DNA of 33,209 nt, from the NCBI GenBank assembly GCA_051941275.1, contig JAVEBF010000074.1, positions 1 through 33,209 on the forward strand, read 5' to 3'. Source of the DNA: Dirinaria sp. TL-2023a. Lineage: Eukaryota. The notes under the pieces are model-generated. The model was given only the letters and a program-made list of their open reading frames with translations, ran no database searches and had not been told where the DNA came from. Of this stretch, positions 7,840 to 32,771 are shown in pieces. Within the stretch, counting starts at the first letter, position 1. Every line of letters starts with the position of its first letter. The translations under genes were made by a program, and so were the position numbers.

Positions 7840-9601
7840 ATGCAAGATGGAGTCGATCAGACCGACTCCAAATACGCGGGGATACCGTCATCAACTCAAG
7901 GTGAGAAGTGTCACGAAGATGCCTTCGAGAACGTTTGTGATCAGAGTCCCCCAAGGAGCGCCCTCTTGGGTCGGTTTTGGTGGGTGGTTCTTTCAGCCTC
8001 GATGCTTCTAGCAGAAATGCAAGTAGCCCTCGACACCACAATTACTGCCGATCTACAGCCGGCTATAATCAATGCTCTCGGAGAAGTTTCAAAGCTGCCA
8101 TGGATCAATGTTACTTACTCGCTTGTAAATGGCGCCTCGTGCCTTTTATGGTAAGACTTGTTCTCTATGAATATGAGACACCGTCCGCAAACAATGATAA
8201 ACAGGGGAAAGCTGCTCGTATTCTTTGATAGCAAGAAGATCCTACTTGCTGCCCGACTGTTTTTCGCTGTCGGCTCCGCCCTTGCTGCTACTGCGCCTTC
8301 TATGAATGCCTTTATTCTTGGTAAGGCAATCACCGGCGTAGGAGGCAGCGGCACCTATTTATCCATCATCAACATTTTCACTGCGCTCACGGCCGCGGAA
8401 GAGCGCGCTCGATGCTTTAGCTATATCGGCTTCATGTGGGGACTTGGTACCATGTCAGTTTACTGCCCCTTCTTGATACTCTCATATCAGTAACGTGACG
8501 TCCAGTATCGGCCCTGTTATTGGAGGCGCTTTTGCTGCGACTGCCGCTGGTTGGCGTTGGAGCTTTTACTTCAACTTGATCCTTGTCGGTGTCTTTTTTC
8601 CCGTATTTTTATTTATTCTGCCTTCTAGTAAGCCCTCAACTTCTCAAACTAGTCTGTGGAATCGTACTTGTCGCATCGATATTGTTGGTTCTTTGTTATT
8701 CGCCGGCGCTCTCTGCTCTGGGATCATGGCTATACTATTCGGGGGAACATTTTATCCTTGGGGAAGCGGACGCATCATTGGGTTGTTCTGCTGCTCGGCA
8801 GTTCTCTGGATTTTGTTCAGTGTCCAGCAAGCTACTGCCACCTTCACGACGATTGAAGATCGCATAGTTCCCGTTCATATTTTACGTTCGTGGGAAATGT
8901 GGATTCTAATCATCCAAACTGGCTGCGCCATCAGCATGCTCTTCATCACCATCTACTACATTCCACTGTACTTTCAATTCGTACGGGGTGAATCGGCAAT
9001 TCGATCGGCAGTCGACCTTCTACCGTTTCTCTTCACCTCGGTTTTTGCAATGTTGATTTCCGGGCGTCTGATGACTTGGCTAAACTACTATAAGCCTTGG
9101 TTTGTCACCGGTAGTAGCCTAGCATTGATAATGTCTGTATGTCTGTACACGACCGAGATTGATACCTCTCACGCCAAAATCTACGGTTACTTGATTCTTG
9201 GTGGAGTTGGCACTGGTCTCTATGCGATGAATGCCGCACCCGTCATGTCAGCGATAGTGGCGAAAGGAAACACCGCAGCTGCAAGCACTATCTTTGGATG
9301 TGTTGATATCATTTCAAGTTCCTTCTCGGTCGGAATCGCAAACAGTATTTTTGTCAATCGGGCGTCGGACAGCATACAGAAGATACTACCAGCCACTCCA
9401 CGAGCAACCGTGCGCGAAGCGATTACGGGTGTTGGAGGTTCTCTGACTGACCAGCTTCCGCCGCCTGTCAAAGCAGCAGTTCTCCAAGCGGTTCTGAATG
9501 CTATCAAGGACGCTTGGATTCAGATGATAGCCACAGCAGCCCTGTCCCTTGCACTGTCATGCTTCCTACGCAGCCGGAAGCTGAGCCACTTGCCAAAGTG
9601 A
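7840..9601 (+). CDS. MFS efflux transporter, DHA2 (14-TMS) family, patC/DEP3-like
   Basis: Exons 7840-8150, 8205-8453 and 8506-9601. Introns 8151-8204 (GTAAGA..CAG) and 8454-8505 (GTCAGT..CAG) join in frame. Motifs LDTTITAD.QP.I, WGKL, G.AI.G.GG.G, GLGT.IGP.IGGAF....GWRW.FY.NL, YYIPLYFQF.RG.SA..S. Confidence 0.92.
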
Positions 9602-16817: not shown

Positions 16818-17722
16818 TTACAGTTCGTGCGCTTGACGGTCCCCTTGAAGTTCAGATAAACCTCTGTCCTCGGCTAGCTCATGCAGCCTTTGGGTCTCGC
16901 TTGGAGCTGCCGTCTCTTTCTTTTGATTCATGTACGCTAGGGGTATCTGGGTTTCACTCGCGTTTCTCTTTTTTTGTCGCCGCCAAACAATGAAGGCAAG
17001 AGTTCCGAGGATGGCTATTCCAGCGGCGACGCCCACGCCGACCCCAACACCCACTGCGACGTGGTTGTTCGAGCTTTTACTTGGGGAGGAAGTCGGACTT
17101 GGAGAGGTCTGTGGGGCCGCGGTGGGAGTTGGTGAGGAGGATGTGCGTCGGCTTGTAGTGGCTGTGCTGGATGTTGACGTTATTGTAGAAGTCGCTGAAG
17201 AAGTCGCTGAAGCGCTCGCTGTGGGCGGTGCTGTAAGGTGTGTAACGATTGTGGCCACGCCCAAATTGAAGGTTGACGCCGGAGTCGAGCAGCAATCAGA
17301 TTTGGTGAGGTCGTAGCAGCAAAAATTTCCGTCTCCGCATGGCTGCACGCCATTGCCGGTTATGTTAGCTGCCAAGCTGTATTAGCCGCCATCACGACCT
17401 TAGAGAGAGCAGACCACAAACACGTCGTATTCGTGTTGCAAATCTCCAAGCACGAGTTGCTCGCCCACGTATTGTCTGTGCACTCGCTGGTGTAATAGGG
17501 CGTCTCGCCAAAATTCTGCGTTGAATTAGGTTGACAGAGGCCGTTGCTCAGACAGATATTTCCCAAGGAGCAACATGGGCCGTTTTCAGCGCTAGGGTCG
17601 CACGGAAAACTATTTGGGTCTTGGACCAGATCAATTCCATAACATCTGTGCTGCGCTGCTGCTTCCGACAGAGCGACAAGCGTGGTAGCAAAGGCTAAGA
17701 GCTCGAGGAAAAGCCTATGCAT
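16818..17722 (-). CDS. Type I membrane protein: Cys-rich ectodomain + S/T stalk + TM (Mid2/Wsc-like surface sensor), paralogue B
   Basis: ATG 17722 with signal peptide MHRLFLELLAFATTLVALSEAAA. Same Cys motif (CC..GNICLSNGLC...YYTSECTDNTW...CLEIC). Intron 17421-17369 (GTTTGT..CTAAT..GCAG). TM VGVGVGVGVAAGIAILGTLAFIVW followed by RRQKKR. Tail with HEL/SEL motifs. Confidence 0.87.
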
Positions 17723-19796
17723 GGTGGTAGTAGATGGGTTGAACCGAAACAGAGGAAGAAATGCTTCCACGAGGACAGGTGAGAGGCATAGAGAAGAGGT
17801 TGGCAGCATGAACGAGGCTGCGAGTGGGCTATGAAACCCAGAATCCCCCTTCCCAGGATCAGCATCCTTGCGGCAATTGCCTGACAATTGCGGCTCAGTG
17901 TCGTCGGACCCAATCACAGTGGATCGAATTTATGGTGCAAGCCGTCACCACCACAGTGGAGACGAATCATTTCAATCTTCTCATCTCTTATCGTCAGAAC
18001 TTCCGAAATCATTCTCAAAGAAATAATTATGCTGAGATGATAACAGATCTAGAGGCCAGATAGAGCGAGATCAAGGGAAGAGAATACAAGTATCTTGGTT
18101 TCTCGGAACAGAACCCTCGTTGTTCTTATCGAGAACATATTGTTATTTGTGGATGCACAGAATGGTCGCGTGATCCAATACTGCTTTCGATCGAGACGTT
18201 GAGGAACTGCAAGCATGAAGCAGTAGTGCCTAGCACCTTCTTTACTGTGTAGAATGGCTGCAAAGCGATTGGCGCTGGTGGGGTTACCCTGCCCGGACGT
18301 TGTTTCCCGTCTTGAACTAAAGGTTATTTCAAAGCTAACCTTGCATAAAGTAATTGAAAGCTTCAAATGCCACTACGGTACTCTCCGCTCCATCAGCTAT
18401 CAGCCATCCCGCGTGGGGAACATACAGTACCTCCGATCATCGGTTGCGCTCCTTTACTCATTCTGGCCCAATCTCGGTGACGGGCTCATTATTTATTTCG
18501 CTATCCAACCTCTGCCAACATGGAGCATTTCCGCACTTCTAACTAGCCATCTTTACCCGAGTTGCTTTAAAGCTAAGAGATAAGCGGGCCAATGCCAAGA
18601 GGCAAGGAATATGATGAGGAGATTAGGAGATTATTATTACCTACCTAATTGAGCCAAAAGGATCGTGGAAGAGATGGAGAAATGCTTGGCTACCTGCATA
18701 CAAAAACTGCGGCAGTCCTCCCAACTATTCTTTTTCCGGACCACTTCTCTTCTCTCTTCCACCTAATACAGTAGTGCATGATTGCTCAAACATCCGAATC
18801 GCATGAGTAGAGGCGATAATTATCCTTACGGCACCCCGACAATTTTTGCGTGCTTACTGACATCTCTCTGTTGAATGTTGATGTTGGCGGTTATTTCATG
18901 ATTGAGACTATGGAAGCCTTCACATATAGTATTGGCGTTGTGATTGCCTTGCCAAGCTGATACAGCACGAAAATTCTGCTCGATACAGATGACTTCCGCT
19001 TTCGACATCAGAGCTCTATCATGGACTCTTCTCCTATGCTATCTTACTCTGCGCAAGACTCGCACCTCATAAAAATATCGAATAATGGCTTCGTCTTCGC
19101 TGTCAGCCATTATTGCAAAAGCCTGCTTTTTAAAGTAGTCCCTTCCATCCGAGGTCGCGTCCCGCTCTCCTTTGTTTGTCCTTGTTGCAGTATCAGCCTG
19201 TTGCCGTCTTTTGGCTGCGTAGTTTGCGACTTTTTAAATCCCCTCTCCACTTTATAATTGATTCTGCCTAAGCGTCTCTGCCCCGGTCCTTATATTGATT
19301 AAGACCCCTCAACCAGAATTCGTCCGTATTTTTTATTTTTTGTTTTTGTTCTTTTCCCCAAACGGCACATCGATCAACAATGTTGTCAAGACAAAAGCTG
19401 CTACTTTGGAAAACAAACAAAGCCTTTCTTTGCATTTCAACACTGGATAACTTACCGCCAAAATCCGCTAAAATCCACATCACTTTCCGGTTGACAAGCG
19501 TGGCCAAGACAAGCTCACACTGTGGGCAGCGGACAAATCAACCCATGTCCAACACCACTCCAAGATCGATGAGAATGTGAATAGTCATGTACAACACCAT
19601 TGTCTCGCCACTTCACATCGGGTCACTGTTAGGATCATGTATACTATATGTAGAGGCCAAAGTCCCGATCCAGGATGTCTTCTCCAACACAGAAGAGATT
19701 CTTCAAATCGTTCGAAAGTTTGGCTATCCTTCGAACTTCCAACATCATTTCCCCCAAATCAACCTTTATTCACAGAACATAATCTACGTTTTCAAG

Positions 19797-21200
19797 ATGT
19801 CCGGGTCTTCCAATCATGGACAACAGGAGGAGGAGACCATGCTGATCCTGGACCGCGACAATGAGCCGGTCAGGGAAACGCTAGGGCAGCTAATGACAGT
19901 ATTTGCATACGTGCAGATACGCCGTCTAGCGGAGGAGGATCGGACATGTCCCTGCTGCCGCTGCAGGTATATGGAGATTCGGGAGGGTGAGGATCCTCTC
20001 GTGGAGCTCCCTGTAAGAACCTTATGCGGCCATGTTCTTGGAGAAGCCTGCTTAAAGCGCTGGCTTCCGAACAACACATGCCCACTATGTCGAGCCCAAT
20101 TATTTAGCGTTCCCGACGACTCTGCAAGTGAAGATGAGGATGAAGAGGAAGATAGCGACATGGACTCGGAAGAAGAGAATTCACCAGCGCAGGTCCGAGT
20201 GCAAAGCTACAGCCCAGATGCTCGCGACATTCGTGAGGTGGCACAAATCTACCAGTCGTGGCCACGGAGTCGCGCATGGTTAGTGGCTGAAATTCGAAGG
20301 GTAGGGGCTTTTCGAGAAGCGCGGCTCTACGCAGACCTCCTCGCGGACAGAGCAACCCTCCCAGGTCCACGAACATTTGGGCCTGATCTCCATGGCCTGC
20401 TTGACTGGAGACAGGATCGAGCCCTATGCCACGAAATTCGGCGTCTCGGTGGCTTCGAATATGATGGCATGGGCTACGACATTTGGGCCAGCAATTGGCA
20501 AACGGTAGAAGAAAAGTACGAAGAGCTTCGCAACGAAAGGCTCTGCTGGAATCTACGGCACCATGCATGGATTCGACACGACGGCACGGTCGTTTATGCA
20601 AGAGATGGCTCCGGTACCGCACAGGGCGGTGCGGCAAGGTCGCGTCAGGTTGTAGCTCTCGACCTCCAGTCAAGTGAGGAGGATATCCAGTTCTGGTTGA
20701 ACCGGCTTCAATCAAATCTGGGTCCTGGGGAGGAAATCGAGATTTCTCGACATTCGGTCGAGCGACGGAGCGAAAGTGAGGATCTACTTCGACACCGACA
20801 AGTGAGGAGGCCGAGACCGAGGCCCGTCTATTCTCACGACTCGCGTGAGAATATCCAAGACCAGCAGGAGATGAGCGAAGCTGGTGGTGAGGCCACCCAC
20901 CAAGAACACCAAGAACACCAAGATCAGCCAGACCAGGTGGCCGAGGAGGGAGACATGGAGATAGAGGAAGCCGAAGTAGTTGAATCAGTGGAGGCAGATC
21001 AAGGCCACGAAGCTCCAGCACCGACTGTCCAAAGTCGGAACGCCCACGATTACGAGCTCGACCCAGATAACTCCTCTCTTCGTTGGGACTGGCGGGCTTA
21101 TCTCGAGAGAAGGGAGGGCTCGAGCGAAGCGGAAGAGCGGAGAGTTGTAACCGAAAGGTTTAATACTCTAGCGCGATCGGTCGGCACGTGGGAGATCTGA
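19797..21200 (+). CDS. RING-finger protein (putative E3 ubiquitin ligase), intronless; upstream in-frame ATG at 19587 possible
   Basis: CPCC...PVRTLCGHVLGEACLKRWLPNNTCPLCRAQLF is a RING with the fungal CGHxxG variant. Followed by an acidic stretch, a Trp-rich middle domain and a disordered acidic C-terminus (HQEHQEHQD). CAAGATG context at 19797. Confidence 0.8.
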   Translation: MSGSSNHGQQEEETMLILDRDNEPVRETLGQLMTVFAYVQIRRLAEEDRTCPCCRCRYMEIREGEDPLVELPVRTLCGHVLGEACLKRWLPNNTCPLCRAQLFSVPDDSASEDEDEEEDSDMDSEEENSPAQVRVQSYSPDARDIREVAQIYQSWPRSRAWLVAEIRRVGAFREARLYADLLADRATLPGPRTFGPDLHGLLDWRQDRALCHEIRRLGGFEYDGMGYDIWASNWQTVEEKYEELRNERLCWNLRHHAWIRHDGTVVYARDGSGTAQGGAARSRQVVALDLQSSEEDIQFWLNRLQSNLGPGEEIEISRHSVERRSESEDLLRHRQVRRPRPRPVYSHDSRENIQDQQEMSEAGGEATHQEHQEHQDQPDQVAEEGDMEIEEAEVVESVEADQGHEAPAPTVQSRNAHDYELDPDNSSLRWDWRAYLERREGSSEAEERRVVTERFNTLARSVGTWEI

Positions 21201-21439: not shown

Positions 21440-22847
21440 CTATACTGCTGTAGCAATACTCCTGCCTCCTAGTTCTTCCGTGCTATTCAACACGTCCGCG
21501 TCACCAGGCCGTTCAGCGCTTGAATGTGTTCTCGAATGTGTCCTTGACTGCGTCCTCGAATGCACGGTATCGTCGGTGCTGAATCGTCTCGCCACGAGCT
21601 CCTCCGGTTGCGACATCCCCATGGCTCTCAGAATAAGATCCTTGCACGCCGCTCTCGAAGTGGTGAAGTAGATGACCGAGTTCCAGAAGCCCATGAGGGA
21701 CAGGACGACGCCGGCTGCGTATTCATTCGAGATCGTGATGGTGTTGGGGTACGCCAGGCTGTAGACGCGGTTGATCGATGACGGCACCCAGGTCACCAGC
21801 AGCGACACAAAGAATAGCAGTGCCACTTTTGTATAGCCCCATGCCGCTTTGTTCGCCTCCACGGCCGCGTTGCTCTTGCTCCGCTGCACGGAGACCATGC
21901 TCATGGGATGAGGCCTTGATATGGTGGGGGACGTCCCGATGCTCACTGTGTATTGTTCATAGCCTTCGCTGGACGAAGAGCTTGTATTGCTTGATCGTCC
22001 TTCTTTTGTTTGGTGGTGTGGGGACGGAATATCTCCGATAGGTAGACGGAGACCGGCAAGCTCGCTCGTGATCTGAACATGGGTGGTTTTGTAATTCATA
22101 ACTTCTTTCTCGTTCCTACCGCCCTCATGGAAGAAGCGCAGCTCTTTACGCTTCTTGAATAGCTCGCGGCCAGCCATGACATAAATCGTAAAGGCGGCGA
22201 TGATACTTACCCTGCGCTTTTGTTAGCTTTCACGATGTAAATGGACAATGTTACTTACCAGGCCGGGGCGTAGCATACAGCTAGCCTAAGAAAGTCCCAT
22301 GGTGTTGATATCCAGCACCACAACTTTGCGGCGCTGTTAGCAGTGCGCACTCCATGCTGCTCGTGGTGAGGAAGCTTACCACTGCGGGCCCATAGATCTT
22401 GCCCCTCGAGCTAGTCTCAACGAAGATGAGGACCAAAGCGATGATGAAAGGCCCGCCATAACACATAGCATGGTATCTCCACTCGAGCGCTTTGAGTTGT
22501 TCCGCATTATACTTCTTGAACAAAGTCATGTAGACATTGACCGCCATTGCCAGGTTCCACAACGCATCTGCTGGGACGAACATCTGGATCAAAAAAGCCT
22601 GGAATTGGCACAAGTGCGACCCTTGGCCTGCTCTGATGCCGGACTCGGATATCATTGTTGCAACGTTGCAAAGGGTGTTTCCCCATGAAGCGTAAAATAT
22701 GAGACGGTTGATGGGTTTCCGGAACTTCGAGGAGGACGCAAAGGTCACGAGGATGAGAGTGGTGCCGATGAGAGAGAAACAAGATGCGACTCTTTCAGTA
22801 ATCTCGAGTGCTCTAAGCTGGTGAGCAGTCAATTGGGTGGTGGCCAT
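21440..22847 (-). CDS. cAMP-receptor-like GPCR (Dicty_CAR / fungal class V)
   Basis: ATG 22847 (MATTQLT). Motifs ERVASCFSLIG, FRKPINRLIFYASWGN, CQFQAFLIQMFVPADALW..AMA.NVY, YGPA.LWCWI, AAW.YTKVA.LFF...L.TWVPSS.NRVY, VL.L.GFWN.VIY. Introns 22379-22324 and 22258-22212 join in frame. Confidence 0.93.
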
Positions 22848-23500
22848 TGTGGCCAATTTCCTCCAGCTTTTGTTTCGTCCACTAGAGCAGCGCACGTTGT
22901 GTAACAAGTGCGGTGTACGGCGTCATGAGCGACAGAAGATATTCTAGCAGAGATCCTGGGCTGAGTCGGAGAGTAAGCAGCTTCTTTTCTATAAGGCCAT
23001 TCTGGAAAGAGGACTGGGGCGGGGTATGAAAGGAATACGAATCCACCATGAGCAGCTTAAAGTTCTTACATGTACATGCGAGACCAGCAATGCAAGACCT
23101 ATGCATGTGCCATGCATCTCAGCCTGCTCCCGACGTGGCCGTATCATAGATCTCTTAGACATGGCATCTAAAGCTATGTAAGGTAAGTCAAGCATCGAAG
23201 ATCCTCCCAACGTCACCTCTGCACTTTCTGGCCTCTGTGGCCTCAGTGGCCTCGGAATTGCCTGCATGGCAATGCTGACAAGCTGCAGATATCGAAACGA
23301 GAACACAGCTGTGATCGTCAAACGGGTAAAAGCGAATAGGCTTGAATGGGCCGGTTAGGCGCAGCCTGCGCGGTCTGCGGTCGCAAAGAACGCCAACGGG
23401 ATCGAGCGCTAGCAAGCCTAGCTTTGGCCAAACACAGAACACACGATGGTGTCACGCCACTGGATCTGGCAGCTGGCGTCGGAAATCTTGCACTGCCTTC

Positions 23501-29245: not shown

Positions 29246-30989
29246 ATGACTTCAACAGCTCAACAGGCTCAACAAGCATATGACGAAGCATTAGCCAAGC
29301 TACCAGGCCTTGAAGCTCCGCCGGGACAGACCCACAACCTTGTCAATCCGTACTCTCGCGGGTGGCTGATAGTCTTTACGTCTGCTATCACTCTGGTAGT
29401 AACTACGCTCCTAGTCGTCATCAGAACCTATACGAAACGTTTTCTCAATAAGTCAGGCCTTCAATGGGAGGACTGTGAGTAATCTCACTCTCTATATGGA
29501 GTTCTTACGTACTGACTTCAACACTAAGATATATCGATTACCGCTTAGGTTAGTAGCCCGTCTGATAAATATTGTTCTATTTTCTGAACCTCTGTTCTAC
29601 AGCTAGGCTATATCGGCTATACATCCGTGGGTTTCCAGTCTGAGAAGTATGGAGGGTATGTTCACGAGTGGAATGTGCCGGCTATCAAGGTGATGCGCTT
29701 CCTGCAGGTAAGCCCACACAGTTGTCATTCAGCTATTGTTTCTATCATCCGCAGTTACGGCTGCAATATTGACGTTGTCGTCTATCTACCCTAGCAATTC
29801 CAATTAGGTTGCTGCCCTGGCCCTTCCAATTGATATGTTGGGTTCTTTCGTAGTATCTCTATTTATAAATTTATGACAAGATTTTCTACCACGCAAAGGT
29901 TAAAGTCGACGATTACTATGCTCTTGTAATGCTTCTTCGATGTAGTGATCTCATGTGCGTGGTCTTTATGGAAGGATTTTCCCTGTTTCTGCCCGATGAT
30001 TTTTCTAAGAGACTGGCGGCTAATCCTGTCCAGATTGTCAATGACATCGAAATCATCTATGGTCCGGTCATGTTCTTGACCAAACTGTCCCTCGTGTTAC
30101 AGATGATGCACATATTTGCGCCGACGCGCTCCGGCATCACTCATCGTCTCTGCCTCTTCATGATCTTATTCAACTTCTTATTCTACACGATCGTCATGTT
30201 CGTCGCTATATTTGTATGCTCCCCCCGGCGTAAGTTCTGGAATCAGAAGACGCCGGGCCATTGTTTGAATATCGACAGCGTCAATATTATCACATCTGTC
30301 ATCAACGCCGCCTCGGATCTTGTTCTTCTGCTCTTGCCAATAATTTGTGTTTTCAGGCTGCAAATGCCTCTGAGGAAGAAATTTGGGGTCTCTGCGGTTT
30401 TCGCAACTGGTGCATTGTAGGTCACTCGCTGAATGAGCTCACTTTCTTTCAGGAGTATCCGCTGACGGGGTATCAGCGCCTACATATCTAGCATCATGCG
30501 CATACTAGCCAGCGTGCGCGTTCGAGGTGCCAAAGACGTGACGTGGATAATCCTTCCTGAAGGGCTTTGGGCGTAAGTCACCATATTCCTGCTTGGGGCG
30601 CTCCTTTGCTCAACTTCACACGATGTAGACAGGGAGAGATAAGCGGTGGTATCGTTTGCGGCTGCATGGCAACCCTACCTCAATTCTTTCGACATTTTGT
30701 CCCGAAAATCACGTCTAAGTTCAGCTCCGGGAGATCGCACAAACTAAGCGCTGCGAGTTCCAGCAAGCAAAGTGAACGCAAGAGAAAACCAAGCGTGGTC
30801 CCGCATCTTGACTCTCAGGTCTACATGGAATTAGATGATCAGATCCATCTCAAGCCAACAGAAGACAAAGGTATTAGTCCAAGGGTAAGGACTGACGAAG
30901 TTACTGTGGAGGATGAAGAGAAGGCTCTTCCGCCGATTTTGGAAGATTCTATCGCTGATGTATCCCAACGACCTGAGTATTACAAGTAA
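29246..30989 (+). CDS. PTH11-like (fungal rhodopsin-domain) integral membrane receptor, no CFEM; carries an in-frame TAG in exon 2
   Basis: Exons 29246-29474, 29529-29548, 29603-29707, 30034-30416, 30477-30572 and 30629-30989. Motifs PGL..PPG...NL.NP, R.YTK......WED, G...H.WNV, YGP.MFL.KLS..LQ...IF, C.PR.K.WN...PG.C, N..SD...L.LP...V..LQM....K.G...VF..G, SI.R, D.TW......LW...EI..G..C.C...LP. Exon 2 translates YISITA*(TAG 29546-29548). Confidence 0.88.
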
Positions 30990-32112
30990 AGATAAGATAC
31001 CGCCATCAGTTCTTGGTACGTAGTGGAGGGACCTGGTGGCTCTGCCGGCGTGAGCGGTTGAAGGGTGTTTGTCTTAGCCGAGGGATGTCGAAGCGTGTAT
31101 AATTTATTATCTATACGTATTGTACAGACTCCCCTACTTATGTCCAATTTCTAGATCCCGGTACGTTCTCCCGTCTAATGCCTTTAAGACTTTATTAGTC
31201 CGAATACTGTGCTCCTTGCAAAAAGTCGAAAATCTGCAACGGCTGAAAGCTGCAACTTTCCGGGTACATTAGAGAGGCAGTTTACACAGACCTGAAGGCA
31301 GCATTCCTCGAACACGCTGCTCGTCGAGAAAGGCACGAGTTGAGAGTATTTTGTTGTACGCCAAATGAGAAGTGTAGCGTGTTTCTGGGCATCTAGTCCT
31401 GGTCTGACGATTTCCTGAGAGGCGCAAGAAAACAGTCGAGGGAGTCGTGCTTGTTTCTAATCAGCAAACGAGGACGGAATTTCGTTTGAATAGTACGGTT
31501 GCTATAGCGGCATGGCCTCTATTGTGGTTGAAACTGGGCCTCTGTAACAGGAAACAACACAGAAGTTTGCTCATGATACCATGTGGTCGATGTCAAGAGC
31601 AAGTGATGTTGTCCCGCTTCGTCAGTAAGCTAGAGGCAAATGATTCGATAAACAAACAAGAGCTGGGATATCACGCACTAGGCCAGCAATGGTACTTTTC
31701 CAGCATCAAAGAACTTCTCTGGCGACAAGAGCACATGATCCACAGTCTCTCAAACTACCTATTCAAATCACATATCTAACAGCATAGAACGTCCATCTAC
31801 AACATTTATTAACCATGTCCTCGTGGATCGATAACGCATAAGAGTCAATATTTTACTCGCAAAGCACTCGAGAGACAAGAAATTTTGTCACTTGTCCAGA
31901 GTCCCTGAAGGAATGGGAGGAATAGCGTGGTATTGCGCAGGGAATTAAAGATGGATGTGAGTTTTCAATTCGATCTATTCTGAGTATACGCGTCTACTCG
32001 ACCTACATGACCGCAGAACCTGATGGCCTGGTACATGAGTTCCCTATGGCGCCAGTCCGGCCAGTTCGGCTTATCACCCAGCTTGTTTTCTTTCGCTGCT
32101 TGTGTTATTTGT

Positions 32113-32519
32113 TCAACTGGTTCCGACGTATCGGGTTCTGCCTCATGCATGTCAGCGAATATTTCGGAAGTGGACGCCTTGAGTAACGCTCGTGGCTCCT
32201 TTACGCTCATCTCTGATATCAAGTAGCTGAATTCCACTTACACGGCGCGATGGGGTTTCTTGAGTACACGACTACCACATCGTATGCATCTATACGTTGG
32301 CAAATCCTCCGGACTGAGTCTGGTTTCAATCTCGCAGAAGTCGCAAATATAATTCACCTTTTGATGTAGATGATTAGCGCTTGCTATACCAGCATCAAAA
32401 TATTTACCTACGCTTCTCGGGCGGTCGGCTTCGAAGCGCCGGTTCTCCTCCTCCAGACGATCGACGAACGTTTGCAGTTCCGGACTATTGAATCGCCTCT
32501 CGAGAGCTTCAGCTGCCAT
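32113..32519 (-). CDS. Divergent RPB12/RPABC4-like zinc-ribbon protein (possibly N-terminally extended from ATG 32771 through an in-frame TAG)
   Basis: Predicted introns 32411-32358 (GTAGGT..GCTAAT..AAG) and 32241-32138 (GTAAGT..GCTGAC..GCAG). The spliced product ends VNYICDFCEIETRLSPEDLPTYRCIRCGSRVLKKPHRAVTRYVGTS*. This matches the Rpb12/RpoP pattern Y.CxxC...RCxxCG.R.L.K. Confidence 0.6.
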
Positions 32520-32525
32520 GTTGTT

Positions 32526-32771
32526 CTATTCCAGATAGAAGAGTTCTCTAAGAATATTGTTGGTCTGAAGAAGTTTTATCAGACGTTGTGACAGCTGCGG
32601 CTGTTCCCGGAGAGGACTATGCATCCGCGCGGTCTGGGTTTGATCGGCTTCGAGATCTTGATTCACCTGGTCAGCAGGGTCGGATTCGGCTTGAAGTTGT
32701 TCGACTGTCATGTCCGATGCGGTGGTTCCAGATGACTCCTGATGAGTGCTCGATTCGGCTTGATGGCTCAT
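32526..32771 (-). CDS. Upstream in-frame ORF (MSHQAESS...LRELFYLE*): either a uORF or the N-terminal part of the RPB12-like gene
   Basis: Protein-like acidic Q/S-rich sequence. Its TAG (32528-32526) is followed by AAC AAC ATG in the same frame as the 32519 start. Confidence 0.45.
   Translation of the reverse strand: MSHQAESSTHQESSGTTASDMTVEQLQAESDPADQVNQDLEADQTQTARMHSPLREQPQLSQRLIKLLQTNNILRELFYLE

Follow-up and report, generated by a model that had tools for sequence, protein, structure and literature searches.

Rpb12 is a subunit common to eukaryotic Pol I, II, and III, and in yeast it is an essential, single-copy subunit. Does a small zinc-ribbon gene on a Dirinaria sp. TL-2023a contig encode a neofunctionalised second copy of it, as the initial annotation of this locus proposed, or has an Rpb12-like ribbon come to sit in a different kind of protein? 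We addressed this in the window, that is, the whole 33,209-nt stretch of contig JAVEBF010000074.1 presented above. Our analysis points, by a modest balance of probability, to the second answer, and to a copy that is interrupted here by a nonsense codon.

Reading frames at the locus

The peptide on which the annotation was built, with its CxxC-x15-CxxC motif, is present on the minus strand (motif 32345-32277). It lies in a 93-codon ATG-to-TAA frame on that strand (32519-32238; ATG 32519-32517, TAA 32240-32238) that reads VNYICDFC, then 15 residues, then CIRCGSRVLKKPHRAV. This stretch belongs to a run of three minus-strand ORFs of 100, 95, and 90 codons that share one frame, with single stops between them. 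The features discussed below are as follows.

32529-32771, minus strand: upstream same-frame ORF, 81 codons from ATG 32771, encoding an N-terminus that is acidic and disordered, then the first long helix
32526-32528, minus strand: in-frame TAG, which interrupts the family ORF three codons before ATG 32519
32412-32519, minus strand: rest of exon 1 from ATG 32519, encoding a charged amphipathic helix; GC 0.59
32358-32411, minus strand: probable intron 1, 54 nt, phase 0 (GTAGGT...GCTAAT...AAG), or alternatively an in-frame 18-residue linker
32242-32357, minus strand: Rpb12-type zinc-ribbon exon, recognised by PF03604, PDB profile matches, AF2, Foldseek, and VIA-align
32236-32241, minus strand: GTAAGT over the TAA stop (32240-32238), which is either only a stop codon or the donor of an intron 2
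32138-32235, minus strand: candidate intron 2 body, with branch site GCTGAC at 32156-32151 and AG ends at 32142 or 32138
32105-32137, minus strand: candidate short last exon, either 32137-32113 (the version first annotated) or 32141-32105 with the earlier AG
31968-32237, minus strand: ORF C, which continues the frame for 90 codons right behind the TAA, with coding-like composition

In a six-frame translation of the window, stop-free CxxC-x8-20-CxxC occurs at two sites, the ribbon gene and 19177-19227 (+), and no second Rpb12-type ribbon occurs elsewhere in the 33 kb. The other site lies upstream of an ORF with a RING finger (19581-21200, +; E 8e-6). Further neighbours are ORFs with Fung_rhodopsin (29869-30989, +; E 1e-32), a Dicty_CAR-type 7TM receptor (21440-22922, -; E 5e-10), MFS_1 (8477-9601, +; E 1e-16), and an SKG6-like segment (16818-17381, -), a fungal set in keeping with a filamentous ascomycete; none of the annotated neighbouring ORFs is transcription-related.

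A very small family of relatives

The three same-frame ORFs were translated through as a single protein, P0001, with X at both stops, and phmmer found four matches to it at E <= 1e-3 among 1.84 billion representatives. P0002 (127 aa, E 1e-10) aligns with P0001 residues 74-172, P0003 (102 aa, E 1.2e-7) with residues 34-128, and P0005 (157 aa, E 7.7e-5) with residues 89-172; the fourth, P0004, is a 750-aa repeat protein whose match is confined to residues 61-107. A profile search contributed P0007, whose 157 residues are 64% identical to P0005, along with the P0008 fragment. The relatives in the collections searched number six, all without names (five significant sequence matches and one fragment), and are singletons or one pair, coming from ENA, Logan, or NCBI. 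Nothing scored in a word-based protein search with the 93-aa frame among proteins of near length, nor in a profile search among longer proteins (311-2000 aa), the latter being weak evidence; the ESM Atlas held no match at 0.9 or above to the 93-aa frame or to ORF C, and metagenome contigs searched with a single protein gave no relative.

Two kinds of candidate were rejected as family members. The metagenome locus L001 2046-2273, retrieved with the P0005/P0007/P0008 alignment, has no zinc ribbon, and its match is confined to a coiled coil within a GC-rich ORF of 727 codons. The repeat proteins P0004 and P0006 (750 and 1524 aa) match only over the helix-loop-helix that spans the TAG (residues 61-105; 32457-32591, -). 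That segment resembles the repeat unit of both proteins, four repeats of which match it at pairwise E of 2e-5 to 1e-3. P0006, an NCBI entry, additionally has sub-threshold matches to nSTAND3 and NPHP3_N, so a fungal STAND/NLR-type protein may possess the module as well.

The family itself is real and very rare, with a helical N-terminal part and a C-terminal ribbon nearest to that of Rpb12; the most conserved block of its alignment is the charged-helix segment, 32412-32519. The locus had been presented as encoding a short, Rpb12-sized paralogue beginning at ATG 32519, and here the comparison leads elsewhere. The relatives are 127-157 aa (the read-through window protein is 177 aa) and have a long helical N-terminal part, extending about 80 residues N-terminal of that ATG and matching the upstream ORF 32771-32529. 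P0003 aligns with read-through residues 37-129 without a gap (33/93 identical), and its N-terminus is similar to the start of the upstream ORF. Because the P0002 and P0003 matches both span the position of the TAG, the family protein takes in the upstream ORF, which makes ATG 32519 internal. Where the window has the TAG, P0003 has G, P0002 has S, and P0005, P0007, and P0008 have V. The upstream ORF scores 0.094 in codon usage, above the 95th percentile of null ORFs (0.069).

There is no consensus donor or branch site around the TAG, and we rejected an intron that removes it: the only GT sites are poor (GTCTGA, GTCACA), and no pair preserves the frame. RIP as the cause of the stops was also rejected, the values of TpA/ApT (0.64) and (CpA+TpG)/(ApC+GpT) (1.16) not being RIP-like. 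In the sequence as given, then, the window copy is interrupted by the TAG, for which a sequencing error or a strain variant could instead be responsible, and we infer that it is truncated or decaying. Translation from ATG 32519, on a transcript that also bears the 81-codon upstream ORF, would depend on reinitiation and would be inefficient. An alternative for this part of the locus is a gene that is intact, the TAG being an assembly error, a strain polymorphism, or a codon that is read through, with a full-length protein of ~157-175 residues. The still coding-like upstream ORF, its gapless alignment with P0003, and a TpA/ApT ratio that carries no RIP signature of inactivation would all suit such a gene, but the sequence as given does read TAG, and we regard an intact gene as unlikely.

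Similarity of the ribbon to Rpb12

That the ribbon resembles Rpb12, as first annotated, is borne out by sequence and predicted fold alike. In Pfam the outcome is mixed: the ribbon exon on its own matches PF03604 better than any other family (E 2.1e-4, 21.4 bits; next family E 0.023), but the gathering cut-off of 24 bits is missed by this exon and likewise by the 93-aa frame (19.1) and P0005 (14.2). PF03604 has no match at E <= 10 in P0002 or P0007. Among PDB sequences, a phmmer search with the 93-aa frame gave 13 matches at E <= 10, every one of them Rpb12, POLR2K, or archaeal subunit P, and each of them weak (best E 0.048). We then used a family profile made of the window frame and five relatives, again against PDB sequences at E <= 10; the top 12 of its 42 matches are Rpb12 chains, led by yeast 1i3q_L (residues 20-61, E 7.8e-6), and the first non-Rpb12 protein appears at E 0.015. 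A profile that omits the window (P0002, P0005, and P0007) still has Rpb12 as its top seven of 39 matches (best E 5.3e-4), so the window sequence is not the sole source of the Rpb12 signal.

The four cysteines, and a Y two residues before the first of them, are kept in all four ribbon-bearing members (the window, P0002, P0005, and P0007). Other positions are less constant. The CxxC pairs are separated by 15 residues in the window and in P0002, by 13 in P0005 and P0007; the earlier statement that the window spacer exceeds that of Rpb12 by two residues is correct, since Rpb12 chains have 13 and the HMMER alignment places a two-residue gap there. The equivalent of yeast R47, an Arg before the second CxxC, is present in three of the four members, while G-x-R after the second CxxC is kept in the window sequence only. 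At the position of yeast R60, P0002 keeps R, P0005 and P0007 carry P, and the window carries H followed directly by R.

For the 93-aa frame, AF2 predicts a zinc-ribbon fold of two hairpin knuckles, each with a CxxC, made up of strands 55-59 and 65-68 and a second knuckle (mean pLDDT 70.5; ribbon about 80-85), and the best fold matches are zinc ribbons. The charged N-terminal helix of the initial annotation is predicted too (helices 2-10 and 13-31). In the read-through protein, residues 1-31 are disordered, a long helix covers residues 32-80, and shorter ones follow at 86-94 and 97-115; the TAG is residue 82, within the loop 81-85 between helices, and the ribbon (139-170) reaches a pLDDT of about 87-90. 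The top eight Foldseek matches to the 93-aa model are Rpb12/RpoP (rmsd 1.7-2.9 A over 39-41 columns), none at E <= 0.001. An exhaustive VIA-align search ranked 9mu7_L, an Rpb12 chain, highest (Z 5.0, rmsd 1.6 A over 39 aligned residues), with the ribbons of Pirh2, rubrerythrin, and MCM within 1 Z unit. Since other ribbons come so close in Z and no Foldseek match reaches E <= 0.001, Rpb12 is not singled out by fold alone.

Four-cysteine ribbons converge, and the likeness to Rpb12 might accordingly be something other than homology. Such an unrelated ribbon would agree with Pfam scores that are all below the gathering cut-off and lacking in two of the four ribbon-bearing members, with a spacer that varies, with a G-x-R confined to the window, and with structural Z values that are low and tied with those of other ribbons. 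It fits poorly with the behaviour of the profiles: adding relatives strengthens the Rpb12 signal (from E 0.048 to 7.8e-6), the signal persists when the window is removed, Rpb12 stands about three orders of E-value above the first other protein with the family profile and about two without the window, and yeast-species chains fill the top ranks. We consider convergence unlikely, to about the same degree as an intact gene. Taken together, sequence profile and predicted fold support a ribbon that is Rpb12-like beyond chance, though below curated thresholds.

Introns, C-terminus, and the downstream frame

The segment 32411-32358 is open and in frame over its 54 nt and, by the consensus forms of fungal splice signals, contains a donor (GTAGGT), a branch site (GCTAAT), and an acceptor (AAG) at the right distances. 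Comparable local splice signals are found elsewhere in the window (GTAAGT...GCTAAC...AG between two receptor ORFs, and others). Its GC is 0.35, as compared to 0.59 and 0.47 in its flanks, its GC3 is 0.11, and AF2 gives it a pLDDT below 50. The relatives are ORF calls on ENA and Logan contigs, in which in-frame introns would be read through, and in their peptides conservation within the segment is limited to the columns whose codons would make up donor, branch site, and acceptor. The segment starts with V-[GS] in all six relatives (GTR RGT); positions 12-13 are [AT]-[DN] in the four read-through sequences, window included (nCT RAY), and the same four end in K (AAG). Two of the six relatives stop inside the segment: P0003 does so two codons after N-A-D, and P0008 ends in K-C-stop, which would be GCTGAC in another frame. 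Such splice signals are deduced from peptides, and the length of the segment, exactly 18 codons that stay open in the window and in all three relatives that read through, favours a coding linker. On balance we read 32411-32358 as probably an intron. The spliced gene first described is thus kept in one part, an intron 1 that is probably real given its splice signals and low GC, and revised in another, the gene model having been too short upstream.

Beyond the ribbon, a perfect GTAAGT (32241-32236) overlaps the TAA, followed by GCTGAC (32156-32151) and by AGs that end at 32142 and 32138. The second AG yields the 104-nt intron of the initial annotation and the tail TRYVGTS, whose length had been said to match Rpb12. 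That match hangs on the choice of acceptor, because AG 32142, equally placed, yields a 100-nt intron and a different tail of 12 residues (stop 32107-32105). Neither candidate spliced tail of the window resembles the Rpb12 tail pattern that had been quoted for comparison. The last residues before the stop (G, K, and K in relatives, V in the window) fit a phase-2 NN/GTRAGT donor, which is weak evidence, and the candidate intron has an exon-like GC of 0.48, which counts against it. Past the last cysteine, the four ribbon-bearing frames have only 10, 12, 12, and 12 residues left, with nothing like the basic C-terminal part of Rpb12 in any of them.

These results bear on the originally proposed gene as a whole, namely three exons from ATG 32519 encoding a neofunctionalised Rpb12 paralogue that enters or decoys RNA polymerases. 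It draws on consensus signals at both proposed introns, on an ATG with A at -3 and G at +4, on the profile and fold matches of the ribbon, and on the R47-equivalent Arg of three of the four ribbon-bearing members, a conserved residue according to PMC2680338. Its difficulties are greater: the relatives continue the frame for ~80 residues further upstream, the length of the tail changes with the AG chosen, the second intron looks like exon in composition, and all members are missing the basic C-terminal part that, in that paper, is sufficient in archaeal subunit P. We rate this gene as quite improbable, below both an intact family gene and a convergent ribbon.

ORF C looks coding by composition and is not accounted for by the model that we prefer. 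Its codon-usage score is 0.140 (null ORFs: mean -0.026, SD 0.06, maximum 0.164), a figure to be read alongside scores above 0.1 in some antisense ORFs of the window, and its GC is 0.50 as compared to 0.42 in the flanks. It has no Pfam match, none of the four phmmer matches covers it, and its Atlas recognition of 1793 is below 2300. ORF C might be extended by way of a GTAGGT at 32006 paired with a pyrimidine-rich AG at 31905. The one-frame arrangement of the 100-, 95-, and 90-codon ORFs, with its single stops, and the composition of ORF C would be expected of a larger ancestral gene over 32771-31968 that has acquired two nonsense codons, or of an ORF C that is an additional exon or a small gene in its own right. 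This we hold to be slightly less probable still than the original proposal: the antisense scores blunt the codon-usage argument, the relatives' matches leave ORF C out, and all four ribbon-bearing members end just past the ribbon. The only in-frame acceptor near the donor would join the ribbon exon to ORF C by a 36-nt intron, rejected as too short and as having no branch site.

Origin and possible role of the gene

We conclude, with somewhat better than even confidence, that the locus holds a family gene with an Rpb12-derived ribbon, in a copy interrupted by the TAG. It would be a genuine gene on the minus strand, from a fungal family that is lineage-restricted, very small, and quick to evolve, and whose exon 1 (32771-32412) is predicted to encode a disordered acidic stretch, a helix-loop-helix, and a charged helix. 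A probable 54-nt phase-0 intron (32411-32358) would precede the ribbon exon (32357-32242), and the four-cysteine C-terminal ribbon is most likely derived from that of Rpb12/RPABC4. The protein would end 10-12 residues past the last cysteine, hence without the basic Rpb12 tail. Cut by the TAG, the window copy would be decaying or would give at most a C-terminal product of 75-93 residues from ATG 32519. The ribbon may serve as a small protein-docking knob, with the helices binding a partner.

Because it lacks the tail, the family protein should be unable to replace Rpb12, and it is presumably not a working polymerase subunit. That any contact it makes with a polymerase would be competitive or regulatory is a suggestion to which we give little credence. 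Least probable of all is a lineage-specific chimeric gene that would join a captured RPB12 ribbon exon to a STAND/NLR-like helical module, with a product that would dock at the Rpb12 site of polymerases still being assembled, or at an Rpb2/Rpb3-like surface, as a regulator or decoy; this copy would have been lost recently to a nonsense mutation. If the homology holds, a domain of the core machinery would have been recruited into a young, fast-evolving gene, and the family would supply a naturally occurring Rpb12 ribbon without the rest of the subunit, with which to probe what the ribbon can bind by itself. The practical value lies mainly in the corrected gene model and in a caution against the label of polymerase subunit.

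Comparison with known systems

In Reich et al. 2009 (PMC2680338), the hallmarks of Rpb12 are the ribbon and a basic C-terminal part with a conserved arginine pair (R47 and R60 in yeast), and the subunit touches Rpb2 and Rpb3. For archaeal subunit P, the same paper reports that a 17-residue C-terminal peptide suffices for all basic polymerase functions in vitro, and that the ribbon is dispensable for several basic polymerase functions. The family fails three tested Rpb12 hallmarks: the Pfam cut-off, the C-terminal part, and size and architecture. About 100-135 disordered and helical residues precede its ribbon, whereas the matched Rpb12 chains total 46-76 residues; it is below the Pfam cut-off, has no basic C-terminal part, and has a spacer of 15 in the window and P0002. 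We found no description, in the literature searched, of a fungal protein that reuses the Rpb12 ribbon in another architecture.

Archaeal subunit P/Rpo12 shares the ribbon fold, taking second and third place in Foldseek (rmsd 1.8-2.0 A over 40 columns), and gives weak sequence matches (E 0.15-0.62); its C-terminal 17 residues, the functional part in vitro according to PMC2680338, are without counterpart in the family. The Pirh2 C-terminal domain, the rubrerythrin C-terminal domain, and the MCM N-terminal zinc site score Z 3.6-4.2, as compared to 5.0 for the best Rpb12 chain, and these ribbons have no sequence-profile signal, being absent from the 42 family-profile matches at E <= 10. With Rpb12/RPABC4/ABC10-alpha (PF03604, Zn_ribbon_RPAB4) the family shares the four-cysteine ribbon, the Y-x-C-x-x-C of the first knuckle, and, in three of its four ribbon-bearing members, the Arg before the second CxxC, and Rpb12 is the best Pfam, PDB-sequence, and fold match of the family ribbon.
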